The notes under the pieces are model-generated. The model made no database searches. It worked only from the letters and a program-made list of their open reading frames with translations, and was not told the DNA's origin. A DNA stretch of 64,000 bases from an uncultured Oscillospiraceae bacterium (GTDB lineage Bacteria; Bacillota; Clostridia; Oscillospirales; Oscillospiraceae), in assembly GCA_964630255.1 (NCBI GenBank), contig CAZVRP010000002.1:1774-65773 (forward strand), in the 5' to 3' direction. Below are positions 16,662 through 23,468 of the stretch, in pieces. A program made the translations under genes and the position numbers. How positions within the stretch are numbered: position 1 is the first letter of the stretch; every line of letters begins with the position of its first letter.

Positions 16662-17560
16662 TTGACTTACACCCCATCTCTCTGACCGACAAGTCCTGGA
16701 TTGATGCCTGTGTCCTGGCAGAAAATTCCCCCAGCGCGGATTATAATTTCGGCAACATGTTCCTCTGGGATGAAACCTTCCACCAGCAGGTAGGCCGGCT
16801 GAACGGCCGTATGATCGTGCTCCCCTGCTATGAGGACGATCCTTTTTTCTCCTGGCCTGTCGGCTCCGGCGAGCTTCTGCCGGTCCTGGAGGAGATGCGC
16901 GCCTATGCCGGAACCCACGGTTTCCCTTTTGTCCTCCGGGGCGTGACGGCGGATCATCTTCCCATGGCGTGGGAGCTGTGGGGAGACACATGTACCGTCA
17001 TGGAAGAGCGGAACCTGTGGGACTATCTCTATGCCGCGGAAAAGCTGGACACGCTCTCCGGAAAGCATCTGCACGGAAAGCGCAACCATATCAACCGCTT
17101 TGAGGCGGAAAACGACTGGCATTTCGCTCCTTTGACCCAGGCGGATTTTCCCGCCTGCCGGGTCATGCTGGACGAGTGGATGGACTCCTGCGGCGAGGAT
17201 GAACGCGACGGCATCGACGATGAGTACCGGGCTATACGCCGGGCCTTTGAGCACTACGAGGACCTAGGCCTGGACGGCGGCGCATTGTGGGTTGGCGACC
17301 GGCCCGTGGCTTTTACCATGGGGGAGGTCATCAGCTCCGACACCTTTGACACCCACTTTGAAAAAGCGTATGCGGACATCAACGGCGCATACACTATGAT
17401 AAACCGGGAGTTTGTCCGCTACATCCGGCGCAAATATCCAAGCGTCCAATGGATAAACCGGGAGGATGACACCGGCCGGCTCAGCCTCCGCCAATCCAAG
17501 CTCAGCTACCATCCGGACCGGATGGTTGAAAAATACAAGTTGGTGTTTGACAATGTCTGA
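16658..17560 (+). CDS. DUF2156 (MprF C-terminal, lysyl-PG-synthase-like) domain protein
   Basis: The ATG overlaps the UDG stop (ATGA). Motifs typical of DUF2156: DYLYAAEKLDTLSGKHLHGKRNHINRF, FEKAYADINGAYTMINREF, NREDDTGRLSLRQSKLSYHP. Confidence 0.75.
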   Translation: MIDLHPISLTDKSWIDACVLAENSPSADYNFGNMFLWDETFHQQVGRLNGRMIVLPCYEDDPFFSWPVGSGELLPVLEEMRAYAGTHGFPFVLRGVTADHLPMAWELWGDTCTVMEERNLWDYLYAAEKLDTLSGKHLHGKRNHINRFEAENDWHFAPLTQADFPACRVMLDEWMDSCGEDERDGIDDEYRAIRRAFEHYEDLGLDGGALWVGDRPVAFTMGEVISSDTFDTHFEKAYADINGAYTMINREFVRYIRRKYPSVQWINREDDTGRLSLRQSKLSYHPDRMVEKYKLVFDNV

Positions 17561-18407
17561 TCATATTCTGCGCCCATGGAAAGCGGATGATATCCCCCAG
17601 CTCACAGACCTGTGGCGCCTGGCCTTTGGGGATGACGAGGAGTATATCAATACCTTCCGGGAAATTTTTTTGAAAAGCGGCGGCTGCATCGTTGCCGAGG
17701 CGGACGGGAAGGTAGTCTCCGCCATGTATATCCTGGACGGTCCCACCCTGTACCCCTTCCGGCAGGAAAAGCTCTCCACCGCCTATACCTACGCCCTGGC
17801 GACCCTGCCTGAATACCGGGGCCGCGGCATCGGCACGGCAGTATACAAGGCGTGCGTCGCCGCCGCCCTGGAGCGGGCGGACGCCGCCTGCGTCCTGCCG
17901 GCGGAAAAAGAGCTCTCCCACTTCTATGAGACCGCCTCCGGCAGTACGCCTATCAGCTATGTGCGCCAGGCCCGCTTCATCCGGGAGGAGCTGCGGGTGA
18001 CCGGACGGTGTATGACAGCCCGCATCACCGCTGCGGAGTACGCCCGCTACCGGGACATGGCCCTGGGCGGTATGCCCTACGCCTCCCTGCCGGACAGCTT
18101 TCTTGACCTGGAGGAATATTACACGGAAAAGACCGGCGGAGGGTTCTTCCTCACCGCAGAGGGCGTGGCCGCCGTGGAGATGGATGGCAACATCTGCCAT
18201 GTCAAGGAGCTTCTTACCCCCGGCGGGGACGGCATGGCCTCCCTGGCAGGCGTGGCGGCCTTCTGCCCGGCCCGGGAATACATCGTCCGCTCCCCCGCTT
18301 TCCTGCGCGGCCCCGGCGAGGTACAGCCCTTCATGCTGGCGGCTCTGAAAAAGCCCGCCGCCTATCCCTTGCCGACCGATCTCTGGTGGGGGGTCGCTTT
18401 CGATTGA
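17553..18407 (+). CDS. GNAT N-acetyltransferase with a C-terminal extra domain
   Basis: The ATG at 17553 overlaps the DUF2156 gene end. The acetyl-CoA motif is LATLPEYRGRGIGTAVYKA. About 130 aa of additional C-terminal domain follow. Confidence 0.75.
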   Translation: MSDHILRPWKADDIPQLTDLWRLAFGDDEEYINTFREIFLKSGGCIVAEADGKVVSAMYILDGPTLYPFRQEKLSTAYTYALATLPEYRGRGIGTAVYKACVAAALERADAACVLPAEKELSHFYETASGSTPISYVRQARFIREELRVTGRCMTARITAAEYARYRDMALGGMPYASLPDSFLDLEEYYTEKTGGGFFLTAEGVAAVEMDGNICHVKELLTPGGDGMASLAGVAAFCPAREYIVRSPAFLRGPGEVQPFMLAALKKPAAYPLPTDLWWGVAFD

Positions 18408-18563
18408 TGCGTAAAGCCGTGTTTTTTGCGACTTGCGCAAATATTTCACGATATTTAATACTTTTGAAACAATCTTTCGCTTGCTTTTGTAACATCCGTT
18501 CTGTAGACTAATACTTGCAAGAGTCAGTTTCATCTTTTTCATTTTGTCCTCAATCCATAAGGG

Positions 18564-18607
18564 AACCGCCGGAACGATGTCGCAAGTTCCGGCGGTTTTC
18601 TTTTTTG
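18564..18607 (+). terminator. Rho-independent terminator (12-bp stem plus T tract)
   Basis: AACCGCCGGAAC-gatgtcgcaa-GTTCCGGCGGTT followed by TTCTTTTTT. Confidence 0.75.
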
Positions 18608-18653
18608 GCTATTTGTAGTATACTGGGACCAACGAATCAGAGGTCGGATCATT

Positions 18654-21218
18654 ATGAAAAGACTTGCCATAGGCATACTGGCCCACGTGGACGCCGGAAA
18701 AACGACCTTGTCGGAGGGTATGCTGTATCTCACGGGAAAAATCAAAAAGCTGGGCCGGGTGGACCACAGGAACACCTACCTGGACACCCACGACCTGGAG
18801 CGGGCCCGAGGCATCACCATCTTCTCCAAGCAGGCCATATTGCAGGCCGGAGACATGGAGATAACCCTGCTGGACACACCGGGGCATATAGACTTCTCCC
18901 CCGAGGCGGAGCGTGTTTTACAGGTGCTGGACTACGCCATTCTGGTCATCAGCGGCACAGACGGCGTCCAGGCCCACACGGAGACGCTGTGGGCTCTCCT
19001 GCGCCGGTATCGGGTCCCCGTCTTTCTGTTCGTCACCAAGATGGATGTGAACGGCGCGGACCGGGCCGCCGTCATGGCCGATCTGCGCAGCCGTCTGGAC
19101 GGCGGATGCGTGGACTTCTCCCCCGCCCCGCCCGCTGTCCGGGACGAGGAGGCTATCGCCATGCTGGACGAGGCTGCACTGGACCGCTACATGGAATCCG
19201 GCGCCGTTCCCAGGGACGACATCGTCCGCATGATCCGGGAACGAAAGCTGTTTCCCTGTTTTTTCGGTTCGGGACTCAAGCTGGACGGCGTGGAGGCATT
19301 TCTGTCCGCCCTGGACCGGTATACCGCCGCGTCTGCCTATCCCGCTCCCTTTGGGGCCCGTGTCTACAAGATCGCACGGGATGGCACAGGGAACCGGCTG
19401 ACCTATTTGAAGGTCACGGGCGGCAGTCTCTCCGTCCGTGCGCCCATGCGCTATCTGCCTCTTCACGGCCAGGAGCCGGTGGAGGAAAAGATCAGTCAGA
19501 TACGCCTGTACTCCGGCATCAAATTCGACGCCGCCGACACCGTCCAGGCCGGCCAGGTATGCGCCGTGACGGGCCTGTCCCAGACCTGGCCGGGCCAAGG
19601 TTTGGGGGCGGAGCCGGACGGGGACGAGCCCTTCCTCACCCCGGTGATGGGCTACCGCATAGTCCTGCCGCCTGACTGTGACGCCCGGGTGATGCTTCCT
19701 AAGCTCAAGCAGCTGGAGGAAGAGGAGCCACAGCTCCATATCCTTTGGCAGGAGCGTCTGGGCCAGATACATGTACAGCTCATGGGCGCCGTGCAGATAG
19801 AGGTGCTCAAAAGCCTGATCCGTTCCCGGTTCGATGTGGATGTCGATATCGACGCCGGGCAGGTCCTTTACCGGGAGACCATCGCGGGTCCCGTGGAGGG
19901 CGTGGGCCATTTCGAGCCCTTGAAGCACTATGCGGAGGTCCATCTTCTGCTGGAGCCCGGGCCGCCCGGCTCCGGCATCGTGCTGGACACCGCCTGCAGC
20001 GAGGATGTGCTGGACCGGAACTGGCAGCGGCTCATACTCACCCATCTGGAGGAGAAGCGGCATTTGGGTGTGCTGACCGGCTCTCCCCTCACCGATGTGA
20101 AGATCACCCTTCTGACCGGACGAGCCCATGTGAAGCACACTGAGGGCGGGGATTTCCGCCAGGCCACCTACCGGGCGGTACGCCAGGGGCTCATGCAGGC
20201 CCAGAGCGTACTGCTGGAACCCTGTTACGCCTTCCGGCTGGAGGTGCCCGCCGCCCAGATCGGGCGGGCCATCAGCGATATACGGTCCATGGGCGGGACC
20301 CATGACAGCCCTGTCGCTGCGGAGGACCGCATGATCCTCACCGGCACGGCCCCCGTATCCTCCATGGGCGATTATATGGCTCAGGTAGCCGCCTATACCG
20401 GCGGCCGGGGCCGCCTTGCCTGCCATGCAAACGGCTACCGGCCCTGCCATAATGCCCAAGCGGTCATCGAGGCCATGGGCTACGACCCGGAGGCGGACCT
20501 GGAAAACACGCCGGACAGCGTGTTCTGTGCCCACGGCGGCGGCTTTCCGGTGAAGTGGGACAAGGTGCGCGAGTATATGCACCTGGAGAGCGGCCTGAAA
20601 GACCCCCCGCAGCCTCCGGAGGATGATACCGCGCCCCGGCTTCGCCGCGAAAATCTGAACATCGACGAAAAAGAGCTGGCAGCCATCATGGAGCGGGAAT
20701 TCGGCCCCATCCGCCGGAAACAGTACGCCGCCCCTCAGGTGAACAGCGCCCCCGGCATCCAGTTCCAGGCCCGGAAGACCCGGGAGCACATCATCGTGGA
20801 CGGCTACAACGTCATCTTCGCCTGGCCGGAGCTGAAAGCGCTGGCCGCCAAGGGCCTGGGCCTGGCCCGGACCCGGCTTTTGGATATGCTGGCCAACTAC
20901 CAAGGCTATACCCAGTGCGACATGATAGCGGTCTTCGATGCCTATAAGGTCCCCGGCGGCCAGGGGAGCCGGGAAAACCAGGGGAATGTTCACATCGCCT
21001 ATACCAAGGAGAACGAGACGGCGGATATGTACATTGAGCGGCTGGTGAACGATATCGGCAAAAATGAGACCGTGCGGGTGGTGACCTCCGACCGGCTCAT
21101 CCGCTTGGGGGCGCTGCGCTCCGGCGTACTGCGCACATCCTCCTCGGAGTTCAAGGCGGAACTGGATCGGGTCCTGGAGCAGATATCCCAGGCCGTCAGG
21201 CGGTCACAGGAGCAATAA
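18654..21218 (+). CDS. TetM/TetO/EF-G-like translational GTPase fused to a C-terminal YacP/Rae1-type NYN ribonuclease domain
   Basis: 854 aa. G motifs are AHVDAGKTT, RGITI, DTPGH and TKMD, with domains II-V colinear with ribosomal protection proteins. From residue 705 onward the tail reads HIIVDGYNVIF...AVFDAY...YTKENETADMYIERL...VVTSDRL, matching the Rae1/YacP signature. Confidence 0.85.
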   Translation: MKRLAIGILAHVDAGKTTLSEGMLYLTGKIKKLGRVDHRNTYLDTHDLERARGITIFSKQAILQAGDMEITLLDTPGHIDFSPEAERVLQVLDYAILVISGTDGVQAHTETLWALLRRYRVPVFLFVTKMDVNGADRAAVMADLRSRLDGGCVDFSPAPPAVRDEEAIAMLDEAALDRYMESGAVPRDDIVRMIRERKLFPCFFGSGLKLDGVEAFLSALDRYTAASAYPAPFGARVYKIARDGTGNRLTYLKVTGGSLSVRAPMRYLPLHGQEPVEEKISQIRLYSGIKFDAADTVQAGQVCAVTGLSQTWPGQGLGAEPDGDEPFLTPVMGYRIVLPPDCDARVMLPKLKQLEEEEPQLHILWQERLGQIHVQLMGAVQIEVLKSLIRSRFDVDVDIDAGQVLYRETIAGPVEGVGHFEPLKHYAEVHLLLEPGPPGSGIVLDTACSEDVLDRNWQRLILTHLEEKRHLGVLTGSPLTDVKITLLTGRAHVKHTEGGDFRQATYRAVRQGLMQAQSVLLEPCYAFRLEVPAAQIGRAISDIRSMGGTHDSPVAAEDRMILTGTAPVSSMGDYMAQVAAYTGGRGRLACHANGYRPCHNAQAVIEAMGYDPEADLENTPDSVFCAHGGGFPVKWDKVREYMHLESGLKDPPQPPEDDTAPRLRRENLNIDEKELAAIMEREFGPIRRKQYAAPQVNSAPGIQFQARKTREHIIVDGYNVIFAWPELKALAAKGLGLARTRLLDMLANYQGYTQCDMIAVFDAYKVPGGQGSRENQGNVHIAYTKENETADMYIERLVNDIGKNETVRVVTSDRLIRLGALRSGVLRTSSSEFKAELDRVLEQISQAVRRSQEQ

Positions 21219-21964
21219 TGGAAAAAAAGCTTGAAAACCGCATAGAGGAACTGGCCGCCCGGTGTGAAAAGACCAGCTGCGTCACCGCCACCGGCTTTCT
21301 CACCATGGCCGAGCAGATGGACGTGACCGTCTGGGCAAAGCGGCAGACGGATGTGAAACTGTGTTTCCACGGGGGCGATACCGCCTGCGAACGAAAGGCC
21401 GCCTTCTTCCTCCCCTACTATATGGAGGCGGAGGACCTGGACGCCGGGGAGTATATCCGCGCCGTGAAGGTGACCGCCTACTTCGGTGAGCCATCCCACC
21501 GGGACTATATGGGCGCGGCTCTGGGCCTGGGCATCCGACGGGAATGGCTCGGTGACTTCCGGGTCCGGGGGAGCACAGCCTATATCTTCTGCCTGCCCTC
21601 CGTGGCAGGGCTTCTCACCGACGAGCTGACAAAAGCCGGGCGGGTGAGCGTCAGGACCGTCCCCTGCTCCCTGGCTGATGTGCCCGCGCCGGAGAGGAAG
21701 GTGAAAAGGCTCACTTTCACCGTCAAAAGCCTGCGGCTGGATGCGGCGGCCGGCAGTATGTTCGGCCTGTCCCGCACCGCCGCGGCAGAGCTTATCCGGG
21801 CAGGGGCCGCAAGCCTCAATCACGTCCTATGCCAGCATGTGGACGCCCCCATCGGTGAGGGAGACGTGATCTCCCTTCGGGGGTACGGCAAGGGTGCAAT
21901 CATGAAGATCGGCAGCAAATCCCGTAAAGACCGGACCTTTGTCGAGGCAGAGATATATCTTTAG
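21218..21964 (+). CDS. ylmH: YlmH-like S4-domain RNA-binding protein
   Basis: The ATG overlaps the upstream stop (TAATG). Colinear with B. subtilis YlmH: ERKAAFFLPYY, DYMGAALGLGIRREWLGDF, KSLRLDAA, GDVISLRGYGKG, KSRKDRT. Confidence 0.8.
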   Translation: MEKKLENRIEELAARCEKTSCVTATGFLTMAEQMDVTVWAKRQTDVKLCFHGGDTACERKAAFFLPYYMEAEDLDAGEYIRAVKVTAYFGEPSHRDYMGAALGLGIRREWLGDFRVRGSTAYIFCLPSVAGLLTDELTKAGRVSVRTVPCSLADVPAPERKVKRLTFTVKSLRLDAAAGSMFGLSRTAAAELIRAGAASLNHVLCQHVDAPIGEGDVISLRGYGKGAIMKIGSKSRKDRTFVEAEIYL

Positions 21965-22055
21965 GACTTTACCTGTCCCTCCGATTTGCCGTAACGGCCC
22001 GGGAAGAAAACTTCCCGGACCGTATTTTTTTCTGCGTTCGGCGCAAACTAAGGCC

Positions 22056-23075
22056 ATGGAAACAAAACGATTGGGAAATCAGACCGTCCATCTCGCGCTT
22101 CAGCCGGGCATCGCCGCGGCTGCCTGCGTCGGCGGCAAAAAAGAGGGCCAGGGTCCACTGAGGAAATATTTTGATTATTTGAGCGACGACTCCCGCTTCG
22201 GCGCCAGGAGCTGGGAAAAGGCGGAGAGCGCCATGCTGAAGATGTGCTACTCCATCGCCTGCGACAAGGCGAAAACCGCGCCAGGGGATGTGGAATATGT
22301 GTTCTCCGGTGACCTTTTGAATCAGTGCGCCGGGTCCGCCTATGCCATGCGGGAGTGCGGTGTGCCCTATTTCGGGCTCTACGGCGCCTGCTCCACCATG
22401 GCGGAGGGGCTGTCCCTGGCCGCCATGCTGATCGACGGCGGCTTTTGCGATATCGCGGCGGCGGCCACCAGCTCTCATTTCTGCTCCGCCGAGCGGCAGT
22501 ACCGCTATCCCCTCCAGTATGGCAGCCAGCGGCCGCCTACGGCCCAGTGGACCGTGACCGGCGCGGGCGCGGCCATATTGAAAGGCGATGGTCCCGCCCC
22601 TTATGTGACCCATATCACCACCGGCGCCATCACCGACGCGGGCGTCACGGATATGAACAACATGGGCGCGGCCATGGCCCCCGCGGCCTATGACACCCTG
22701 GCCGCCCACTTTGAGGACACCGGCCGGAGTCCGGACTACTATGACGCTATCGTCACCGGCGACCTGGGCGTGGTAGGCTCCGACATCCTGCGAGATCTGT
22801 TTATGAGAGACGGCGTCGATCTGGGCCTCCGGTATATGGACTGCGGACGGCTCATCTACTCCATCGAGAGCCAGGACGCCCACAGCGGCGGTTCAGGCTG
22901 CGGCTGCTCTGCCTCCGTCCTGTGCGGCCACCTGCTCCATGGGATGCTGGAGGGCCACTGGAGCCGTCTGCTGTTCGCCGCCACCGGCGCCATGATGAGC
23001 CCCACCACCAATCAGCAGGGCGAGAGCATCCCAGCCATCTGTCATGCGGTAGCTCTGGAAAATACCCGATGCTGA
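22056..23075 (+). CDS. spoVAD: Stage V sporulation protein AD
   Basis: 339 aa from METKRLGNQTV. Thiolase-like fold: GDLLNQCAGSAYAMRECGVPYFGLYGACSTMAEGL...GGSGCGCSA. Confidence 0.9.
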   Translation: METKRLGNQTVHLALQPGIAAAACVGGKKEGQGPLRKYFDYLSDDSRFGARSWEKAESAMLKMCYSIACDKAKTAPGDVEYVFSGDLLNQCAGSAYAMRECGVPYFGLYGACSTMAEGLSLAAMLIDGGFCDIAAAATSSHFCSAERQYRYPLQYGSQRPPTAQWTVTGAGAAILKGDGPAPYVTHITTGAITDAGVTDMNNMGAAMAPAAYDTLAAHFEDTGRSPDYYDAIVTGDLGVVGSDILRDLFMRDGVDLGLRYMDCGRLIYSIESQDAHSGGSGCGCSASVLCGHLLHGMLEGHWSRLLFAATGAMMSPTTNQQGESIPAICHAVALENTRC

Positions 23076-23096
23076 AATCGGAGGTGGAATGTTGAC

Positions 23097-23468
23097 ATGA
23101 ACGATACTTTGATGAGCTTTTTAAAGGCCTTTCTTGTGGGCGGGGGGCTGTGCCTTATCGGCCAGCTTCTCATCGACCTGACGAAGCTGACGCCCGCCCG
23201 CATCCTCACCGTATATGTGGTAGCCGGCGTGGTCCTGGGGGCCGTCGGCCTATACCAGCCCTTTGCCGACTGGGCGGGGGCCGGCGCCACTGTTCCGCTG
23301 ACTGGTTTTGGGAACCTTCTGGCCAAGGGTGTGCGGGACGCCGTGGCCCAGCACGGAGTGATCGGCGCTTTCACCGGCGGCTTTACTGCCGCAGCGGGCG
23401 GCATCTGCGCGGCAATTTTTTTCGGCCTCATCGTCGCGCTTGTGTTCAAGAGCAAGGAGAAATACTGA
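23097..23468 (+). CDS. spoVAEB: Stage V sporulation protein AEb (SpoVAC/SpoVAEB family)
   Basis: 123 aa, nearly colinear with B. subtilis SpoVAEb: AFLVGGGLCLIGQLLIDLTKLTPA...AGAGATVPLTGFGNLLAKG...ALVFKSK. Confidence 0.85.
   Translation: MNDTLMSFLKAFLVGGGLCLIGQLLIDLTKLTPARILTVYVVAGVVLGAVGLYQPFADWAGAGATVPLTGFGNLLAKGVRDAVAQHGVIGAFTGGFTAAAGGICAAIFFGLIVALVFKSKEKY

Follow-up and report, generated by a model that had tools for sequence, protein, structure and literature searches.

What would a bacterium gain from a translational GTPase that carries a ribonuclease at its C-terminal end? The question is raised by a 64,000-nucleotide (nt) stretch of DNA from an uncultured Oscillospiraceae bacterium (assembly GCA_964630255.1, contig CAZVRP010000002.1, positions 1,774 to 65,773), which is referred to here, at its full length, as the window. 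Positions 18654-21218 (+) hold a single open reading frame (ORF) of 854 codons with no interruption, just as the first-pass annotation, made from the letters alone, had it. The product joins an EF-G-fold GTPase, through a flexible tether, to an NYN domain like that of the Bacillus subtilis endoribonuclease Rae1 (YacP), and the gene is followed at once by a homologue of ylmH. We propose that the protein, built on a GTPase subfamily of its own, docks on stalled ribosomes and cuts mRNA there under the control of GTP, a proposal to which we would give about an even chance.

The architecture was already known, so that it is not a discovery of this analysis. Atkinson 2015 (PMC4342817) reported "Tet-NYN_YacP" fusions in ten Clostridiales species and placed them in the Tet subfamily, and Matelska et al. 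2017 (PMC5499597) recorded the same fusion briefly, calling its GTPase Tet/TetM-like. The gene in the window belongs exactly to this "Tet-NYN_YacP" group. Full-text literature searches found no experimental study of such a fusion, which agrees with the earlier statement that no characterised member was known, and an exact-protein look-up found no identical copy on record. What appears to be new here is the assignment of the GTPase to a non-Tet subfamily that has unfused members, residue-level evidence that both halves are probably active, an operon with ylmH that is restricted to one clade, and a warning about mis-annotation. The parts of the fusion gene are as follows.

18654-21218 (+): fusion gene, 854 aa; EF-G-fold translational GTPase, flexible tether and Rae1/YacP-type NYN endoribonuclease (ORF, Pfam, NCBIfam, AlphaFold2 (AF2), Foldseek)
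18654-19325 (+): G domain, aa 1-224; G1 AHVDAGKTT, G2 RGITI, G3 DTPGH with catalytic His78, G4 TKMD (Pfam GTP_EFTU)
19857-20456 (+): EF-G domains IV and V, aa 402-601 (Pfam EFG_IV and EFG_C, Foldseek)
20118-20192 (+): domain IV tip motif GRAHVKHTEGGDFRQATYRAVRQGL, aa 489-513; near-invariant in the family alignment
20445-20588 (+): family-specific module past domain V, aa 598-645, SVFCAHGGGF...WDKVREYMH (conservation, AF2)
20589-20783 (+): flexible tether, aa 646-710 (low complexity, AF2 disorder, variable length)
20784-21215 (+): NYN_YacP (Rae1-type) endoribonuclease domain, aa 711-854, with D716, D762, D791 and D813 (Pfam, alignment to PDB 5mq9)

Two halves of one polypeptide

Four Pfam models score above their cutoffs on the protein: GTP_EFTU at residues 4-224 (6.9e-47), EFG_IV at 402-517 (8.1e-19), EFG_C at 519-601 (1.1e-13) and, for the second half, NYN_YacP (PF05991) at 713-853 (3.1e-43, 148.1 bits against a cutoff of 24.6). 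EFG_III, at 329-399, falls slightly under its gathering score, with 23.8 bits against 27. The AF2 model, built on a 43-sequence alignment (predicted local distance difference test score, pLDDT, 76; predicted template modelling score, pTM, 0.49), has the same domains and a disordered tether, and a Foldseek search with the whole model returns EF-G structures only (E ~1e-48, ~690 columns). With that reservation about EFG_III, the protein has the five-domain EF-G architecture (G, II, III, IV, V) by Pfam together with AF2 and Foldseek. The motifs quoted in the first-pass annotation are all located in the ORF, namely AHVDAGKTT, RGITI, DTPGH and TKMD in the GTPase and VDGYN, VFDAY, YTKENETADMYIERL and VVTSD in the nuclease. 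Its identification of both halves thus stands, and by their conserved residues both look catalytically competent.

For the nuclease, residues 713-850 align to residues 4-141 of B. subtilis YacP/Rae1 (PDB 5mq9) with an E-value of 1e-22, and AF2 models the domain confidently from 711 to 853. Residue conservation was scored in an alignment of 79 family members with Tet(M), Tet(O), TetB(P), an Otr(A)-like protein and E. coli EF-G. The acidic residues D716, D762, D791 and D813 are each present in 79 of the 79 members. By alignment, D716 is the equivalent of Rae1 D7 and D791 that of D81, and the catalytic mutant of Rae1 is D7N D81N (PMC10351889). Judged by its four invariant aspartates, the NYN half looks catalytically intact; the earlier caveat, that the last 150 residues might not match NYN_YacP or might lack the conserved aspartates, does not apply.

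The GTPase half presents a comparable picture. G1 to G3 are conserved across the family, D13 in 79/79 and the catalytic H78 in 78/79 members, and this half, too, looks competent for catalysis. G4 is less uniform: its first residue is Asn in 56, Thr in 21 and Ser in 2 of the 79 sequences, NKMD being the commonest form and TKMD the one found here. Since TKxD is the usual G4 motif of GTPases of the signal recognition particle type, GTP binding by a G domain with TKMD is still plausible. The tip of domain IV has a near-invariant consensus, GrAHxKHTEGGDFRQATYRAVRQGL, in which H495, D500 and R502 occur in all 79 members and H492, aligned with His584 of E. coli EF-G, in 78.

Past domain V lies a module, residues 598-645, that is absent from the Tet proteins and EF-G. 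AF2 folds it with moderate confidence, and C598 (77/79), C625 (79/79) and H627 (77/79) are conserved, so that this Cys/His module may be a metal site, perhaps for zinc. Two further residues in the same region (aa 590-628, 20421-20537), Cys590 (54/79) and His599 (56/79), are partially conserved.

The tether that follows is of low complexity and ranges from 59 to 125 residues across the family, with a median of 77. In the present protein pLDDT drops below 50 at 652-670 and 684-708, and between these segments AF2 places a helix at 672-683 (DEKELAAIMEREF), within the short conserved helix DEKELAAIMEREFGPIRR (aa 671-688). The linker proposed in the first-pass annotation exists; its disordered stretch begins near residue 646, and residues 598-645 belong to the conserved family module. 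Long antisense ORFs also occur here, at 17502-18542 (-) over an upstream GNAT gene and at 18918-20993 (-) over the fusion gene; with 346 and 691 aa, they are of the spurious kind that high-G+C DNA typically yields, and are best left unannotated.

The proposed role on stalled ribosomes

What would the nuclease cut, and where? Free Rae1 offers the best guide. Its cuts fall 12 nt upstream of the A-site codon, at the rear of the stalled ribosome, and may require collided ribosomes (PMC12407103); the authors of the A-site cleavage model have withdrawn it. According to a 2026 preprint, tmRNA tagging after collisions depends on Rae1 (PMC13622287). The first-pass annotation had relied on the older view, in which Rae1 cuts mRNA in the A site, and that premise is outdated. 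Its interpretation as a whole, with a GTPase that delivers an NYN nuclease to ribosomes, is partly supported.

We suggest the following sequence of events. The GTPase body would dock at the factor-binding site or in the A-site region, in a manner dependent on GTP and on the state of the ribosome, and the invariant tip of domain IV would read the decoding centre. Docking would concentrate the attached nuclease around a subset of ribosomes, probably those that have stalled or collided. The NYN domain would then cleave mRNA close to the docked ribosome, in the manner of free Rae1 and perhaps from one member of a collided pair to the other, and the truncated mRNA would feed rescue by trans-translation. 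Because domain IV of an EF-G-fold factor fills the A-site region, the NYN domain cannot sit there simultaneously; the long flexible tether instead suggests a local-concentration model, with the cut made on nearby mRNA. In the window's clade the fusion would be co-transcribed and translationally coupled with the gene of YlmH, an RqcP-like factor of ribosome-associated quality control (RQC), which would fit a common role in rescue.

Several points weigh against this proposal. A 140-residue NYN domain would be excluded from a factor-filled A site, and the cuts of free Rae1 lie close to the mRNA exit or between ribosomes, well away from the factor site of the same ribosome, so that the geometry hinges on the long tether or, hypothetically, on cleavage from one member of a collided pair to the other. 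Instead of mRNA, the enzyme could cut rRNA or tRNA. The link to ylmH arose once and was lost in 6 of the 22 tips of its clade, and may be operon inertia. Finally, whereas the domains, their conserved residues, the distribution, the clade structure, the tether and the layout of the operon are observations, we infer ribosome binding, GTPase activity and RNA cleavage for every member of the family, and the same holds for the RNA substrate, for the ribosome state recognised and for any functional hand-off to YlmH.

Such a hand-off deserves a comment of its own. The first-pass annotation had YlmH handle the 50S and peptidyl-tRNA products of cleavage. An mRNA cut, however, would leave a non-stop 70S complex, on which tmRNA acts, and not the 50S-peptidyl-tRNA complex to which YlmH binds; for a hand-off, some further activity would have to split the ribosome. 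The operon is more plausibly explained if both genes belong to one ribosome-rescue regulon.

It is tempting to go one step further and to regard the protein as a built-in sensor and effector. Its EF-G-like body, with the EF-G-type His at the tip of domain IV, would bind ribosomes that fail to finish translocation or whose A site is vacant, and docking in a particular GTP state would license the cut, perhaps across the collided interface; in the ylmH clade the protein, or its GTPase action, would also promote subunit splitting, leaving 50S-peptidyl-tRNA for YlmH and RqcH to process, and would thus bridge, from a single operon, the nuclease/tmRNA and RQC routes. We put this forward tentatively, as doubtful rather than probable. 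Were it true, no earlier example would be known of a translational GTPase that delivers a nuclease covalently joined to it.

Alternatively, the nuclease may act on 16S/23S rRNA or on tRNA, whether in maturation, in quality control, or in the inactivation or dismantling of ribosomes in dormant or sporulating cells. Gene neighbourhood first tied the NYN_YacP family to the rRNA/tRNA processing genes mrnC and rlmB, and the tether leaves the factor docked beside the rRNA of the decoding and GTPase centres. Sporulation genes are also close by, spoVAD and spoVAC here and cotJA and cotJB in Monoglobus, and the hosts are mostly spore-forming Clostridia. However, Rae1, the sole characterised NYN_YacP enzyme, cuts mRNA in a translation-dependent way, and among 77 loci the neighbourhoods vary, with sporulation genes not generally adjacent and no recurrent rRNA-processing partner. 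We consider action on rRNA or tRNA unlikely, if worth keeping in mind, and we continue to prefer mRNA cleavage on stalled ribosomes.

If mRNA cleavage is the right mechanism, many abundant gut Clostridia (Oscillospiraceae, Lachnospiraceae, Ruminococcaceae) would resolve stalls by means of a GTPase with its own Rae1 nuclease, a variation on the Rae1/tmRNA collision-rescue pathway of Bacillus, which was described only in 2025-2026. The fusion also amounts to a natural experiment in the targeting of Rae1 to ribosomes, and after the 2025-2026 revision it makes a timely experimental target.

A GTPase subfamily apart from the Tet proteins

Could the protein be a tetracycline ribosomal-protection protein of the Tet(M)/Tet(O) type, whose nuclease adds to resistance or changes it? 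Atkinson 2015, who placed these proteins in the Tet subfamily, suggested as much, and some RefSeq names imply it: the homologue at NZ_CP143948.1 24809-25192 (Agathobacter rectalis, H33) is named a TetM/TetW/TetO/TetS family resistance protein. Elsewhere the public names vary among "NYN domain-containing protein", "translation factor GTPase family protein" and "small GTP-binding protein". The best NCBIfam model is indeed NF012153 tet_protect, but its 385.5 bits are half of the curated cutoff of 775, which the protein fails. Identity is no more telling, at 28-32% to Tet proteins against 29-31% to EF-G.

Bootstrapped neighbour-joining (NJ) trees of the GTPase body, rooted on E. coli EF-G, make the fusion family the sister of the Tet clade; the deeper placement is not resolved by a tree with this single outgroup. 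The fusion family is nevertheless monophyletic in 100/100 bootstraps and lies outside the Tet clade, in which Tet(M), Tet(O), TetB(P) and the Otr(A)-like protein are together monophyletic, also in 100/100.

The residues at the tip of domain IV point the same way. Loop III of Tet(M), Y506-Y507-S508-P509, aligns with A491-H492-V493-K494 of the fusion protein (family consensus rAHxKH), so that Pro509, which in Tet(M) occupies the tetracycline site at C1054 (PMC8161019), is absent. A candidate likeness to the C-terminal helix of the Tet proteins, DKVREYM here against DKVRYMF in Tet(M) and DKVRHMF in Tet(O), was rejected, its scores being equalled by 516/2000 and 114/2000 shuffles; we therefore claim no homology there and draw no inference on where the tether exits the ribosome. 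The gene, moreover, is chromosomal, lies among housekeeping genes and is broadly inherited. A resistance protein of the Tet type is thus very improbable.

On the sequence evidence, the GTPase forms a distinct subfamily outside the Tet ribosomal-protection proteins, and the label "ribosomal-protection-type" used in the first-pass annotation is misleading on three counts: the separate clade, the score of 385 against 775 bits and the missing Y506-Y507-S508-P509 loop. Since family members score best on Tet models and lack the Tet-defining residues, resistome surveys of gut metagenomes probably report them falsely as resistance genes.

How widespread is the family? Proteins of the same length and Pfam architecture saturate a search of a 5.8-billion-protein collection, with thousands of protein clusters, and relatives occur in at least 598 species genomes (one genome per species was scanned). 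Among the hosts are Oscillospiraceae, Ruminococcaceae, Acutalibacteraceae, Lachnospiraceae (Blautia, Dorea, Herbinix, Mediterraneibacter, Acetatifactor) and Anaerovorax, and a search of a plasmid collection added Monoglobus. The gene is single-copy and core-like across these hundreds of species, in housekeeping contexts that vary across the family and bear no mobile-element signature. The window has no second NYN, translational GTPase or ylmH gene, and in the multi-record Monoglobus assembly of PLSDB, a collection that may not hold the whole genome, the fused NYN is the only copy found.

The family also has members that lack the nuclease. Among 1.84 billion cluster representatives, 2283 match at E <1e-30; of the best 150 of these, 122 are at least 800 aa long and ~15 are complete unfused proteins of 634-663 aa. 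The unfused members end directly past the Cys/His module (SVFCxHGxG...W..V..MH); examples are P0186 (L087:6001-7971) and P0262 (L088:6001-7962), and also P0184, P0203, P0235 and P0268. For two unfused members, which lie inside contigs of 98 kb and 153 kb, no NYN gene was found in the flanking 6 kb. Complete unfused members with no NYN gene nearby indicate that the chassis is a self-standing subfamily of translational GTPases, to which tether and nuclease were added, and we infer from them that the chassis has a ribosomal role of its own. The gene is chromosomal, vertically inherited and Clostridia-specific, and most members of the subfamily carry the NYN domain.

This distribution also bears on the idea of a toxin-like or anti-phage effector, which would stop translation by cutting RNA on ribosomes and so bring about abortive infection. 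Ribosome-dependent RNases are a common toxin theme, and a GTPase sensor coupled to a nuclease effector would suit it. The PADLOC defence models, however, give no match, no antitoxin-like or defence-island neighbour recurs among the 77 loci, and the gene, single-copy and core-like, keeps to a conserved core gene order and does not lie in variable islands. Only 6 relatives turned up among 2.9 million viral contigs, most of them at contig edges; five are without NYN, and the remaining one (L090) ends with its contig at residue 721. We regard such an effector as highly improbable.

That an assembly or annotation error joined two genes, as the first-pass annotation had allowed for and as the gene called in two pieces in L096 might suggest, can be dismissed, since the ORF is continuous in at least 598 independent genomes and thousands of protein clusters and the L096 split comes from one in-frame stop at the conserved Trp724, intact in the sister contig L097. 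The split itself (L096:3458-5998, ENA ERZ15610158 NODE_85) reads IFA*DELKAL and leaves a 716-aa GTPase and a 108-aa NYN fragment, while L097:3464-6004, from the same sample, is whole. We accordingly rejected L096 as a naturally split version; its stop is either a natural knock-out of the NYN domain or a sequencing error.

The ylmH operon and known systems

In the window the fusion gene forms a tight pair with ylmH, flanked by the following features.

18563-18606 (+): terminator-like hairpin with T-run; 13-pair stem, 18563-18575 with 18586-18598; upstream edge of the bicistron
21218-21964 (+): ylmH homologue, 248 aa; N-terminal domain, RRM-like YlmH_RBD and S4 domain (Pfam, alignment to PDB 8s1p)
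21999-22030 (+): terminator-like hairpin (CCGGGAAG...CTTCCCGG) with T-run; downstream edge of the bicistron, before spoVAD

The stop codon of the fusion gene, TAA at 21216-21218, overlaps the ATG of ylmH at 21218-21220 by one base. The downstream protein scores 33.9 bits against a cutoff of 23 with Pfam YlmH_RBD (PF17774), and its residues 24-242 align to residues 34-251 of B. subtilis YlmH (8s1p_V) with an E-value of 8.9e-29. Its homologues carry PF21278 YlmH_1st and PF01479 S4. In the S4 domain of B. subtilis YlmH, R182 and R195 are needed for 50S binding and function (PMC11317155); LRLD and LSR in the window protein align with LRLD and QSR in B. subtilis, so that the equivalents of both arginines are kept. 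The TAATG overlap and the genuine ylmH that the first-pass annotation described are therefore well founded, as is the tightness of the pair. Bracketed by two terminator-like hairpins, the two genes look like an isolated bicistron.

The hairpin at 18563-18606 was read from the sequence, an automated scan having caught only part of it. Expression of tet(M) is governed by a leader peptide, and a 13-codon ORF, MSQVPAVFFFGYL*, does lie at 18577-18618, starting in the loop of the hairpin and ending 36 nt 5' of the fusion ATG. A regulatory RNA or attenuator in the 246-nt leader was considered and rejected: the leader has no Rfam match and no sigma-70-like promoter, and the intergenic distance is only ~65 nt in the closest relative, L001. 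The simplest reading of the hairpin is thus a terminator for the GNAT gene upstream.

How general is the partnership with ylmH? In 17 of the 80 loci searched by tblastn, the fusion is directly followed by ylmH. In the tree of the family these loci group within a single clade of 22 tips, 16 with the adjacency and 6 without it (the seventeenth locus, L007, is not in the tree), which points to a single origin and later losses. A survey of related genomes thus upholds one part of the earlier claim, the fusion being conserved across the species genomes, and not the other: coupling to YlmH is a trait of one lineage and not a feature of the module at large.

The clade has a second mark. Of the 23 sequences with Thr or Ser at the start of G4 (TKMD in the window, aa 128-131, 19035-19046), 22 fall in it, so the change from Asn to Thr/Ser is, by this alignment, a synapomorphy of the ylmH-linked clade. 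Within the clade the order UDG, LPG_synthase_C, GNAT, fusion, ylmH, spoVAD, spoVAC is kept, and in most of the 17 loci the fusion-ylmH junction is tight, from -26 to +10 nt, with a 4-nt overlap in L097. The ylmH coupling is real and has been kept over considerable divergence, but it is not defining for the architecture. Among the three neighbours on either side in 77 loci there is no recurrent partner other than ylmH, only small scattered clusters.

Two local arrangements may be recorded. In L096 (2156-3365) and L097 (2148-3369) GNAT and the fusion are separated by two genes that the window lacks at this position, one for an ECF-type sigma factor (Sigma70_r2/r4_2) and one for a zf-HC2 anti-sigma-like protein. 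On the 3' side of the window's bicistron, at 21939-23468, spoVAD and spoVAC adjoin, as they do in the clade, and in Monoglobus cotJA and cotJB lie at L081:8911-9367; the adjacency of sporulation genes may be coincidence or a hint of stage-specific expression. The rest of the window appears to be ordinary chromosomal housekeeping DNA of a Clostridia genome with 61% G+C, in which larger ORFs resemble, by their leading residues alone and not by family-library matches, pheS/pheT, the his operon, xseA/xseB and nusB. No tRNA genes or signs of mobile elements were found near the locus.

It remains to set the fusion beside known systems. Like B. subtilis Rae1/YacP (PDB 5mq8/5mq9), its C-terminal 140 residues cover the NYN core with all acidic active-site residues kept, and by analogy ribosome-associated endonucleolytic cleavage of RNA would be expected. 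Rae1, however, is a stand-alone enzyme of ~170 aa that reaches stalled or collided ribosomes by itself, whereas the NYN domain here is the C-terminus of an 854-aa GTPase and is without Rae1's C-terminal tail. The gene contexts differ as well: Rae1 is encoded in a cysS-mrnC-rlmB-yacP operon, and the fusion has GNAT, ylmH and spoVA genes for neighbours.

With Tet(M) and Tet(O) the GTPase shares the five-domain EF-G-like body, a short G' region, the DFR motif past the domain IV tip and the sister-clade position in the NJ tree. It differs in being chromosomal and vertical, not mobile, in its 28% identity, and in its extra Cys/His module, tether and nuclease. EF-G (fusA) and its paralogues have the same fold and the same G motifs, and the equivalent of His584 is kept. 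Unlike EF-G, the fusion has a much shorter G' insertion, with 94 residues from G4 to domain II against 142, as well as its own domain IV motif and a C-terminal extension. The ylmH of the window resembles that of B. subtilis in its three domains and its S4 arginines. It stands apart from the ylmH of the ylm/dcw operon (sepF-ylmG-ylmH-divIVA) in following the fusion gene and preceding spoVAD, with neither sepF nor divIVA nearby.

Beyond what Atkinson 2015 (PMC4342817) and Matelska 2017 (PMC5499597) recorded, the fusion thus emerges as belonging to a separate and very widespread subfamily with unfused members and, in one clade, an operon with ylmH. Conceptually, its closest parallels are SmrB of E. 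coli, Cue2/NONU-1 and Hbs1-Dom34, which likewise couple a sensor of ribosome state to mRNA cleavage or rescue, with no sequence kinship to the fusion. Each of them divides sensor from nuclease, or GTPase from delivered A-site factor as in Hbs1-Dom34, between separate proteins, or uses unrelated domains; in the fusion, GTPase and nuclease are parts of one polypeptide.

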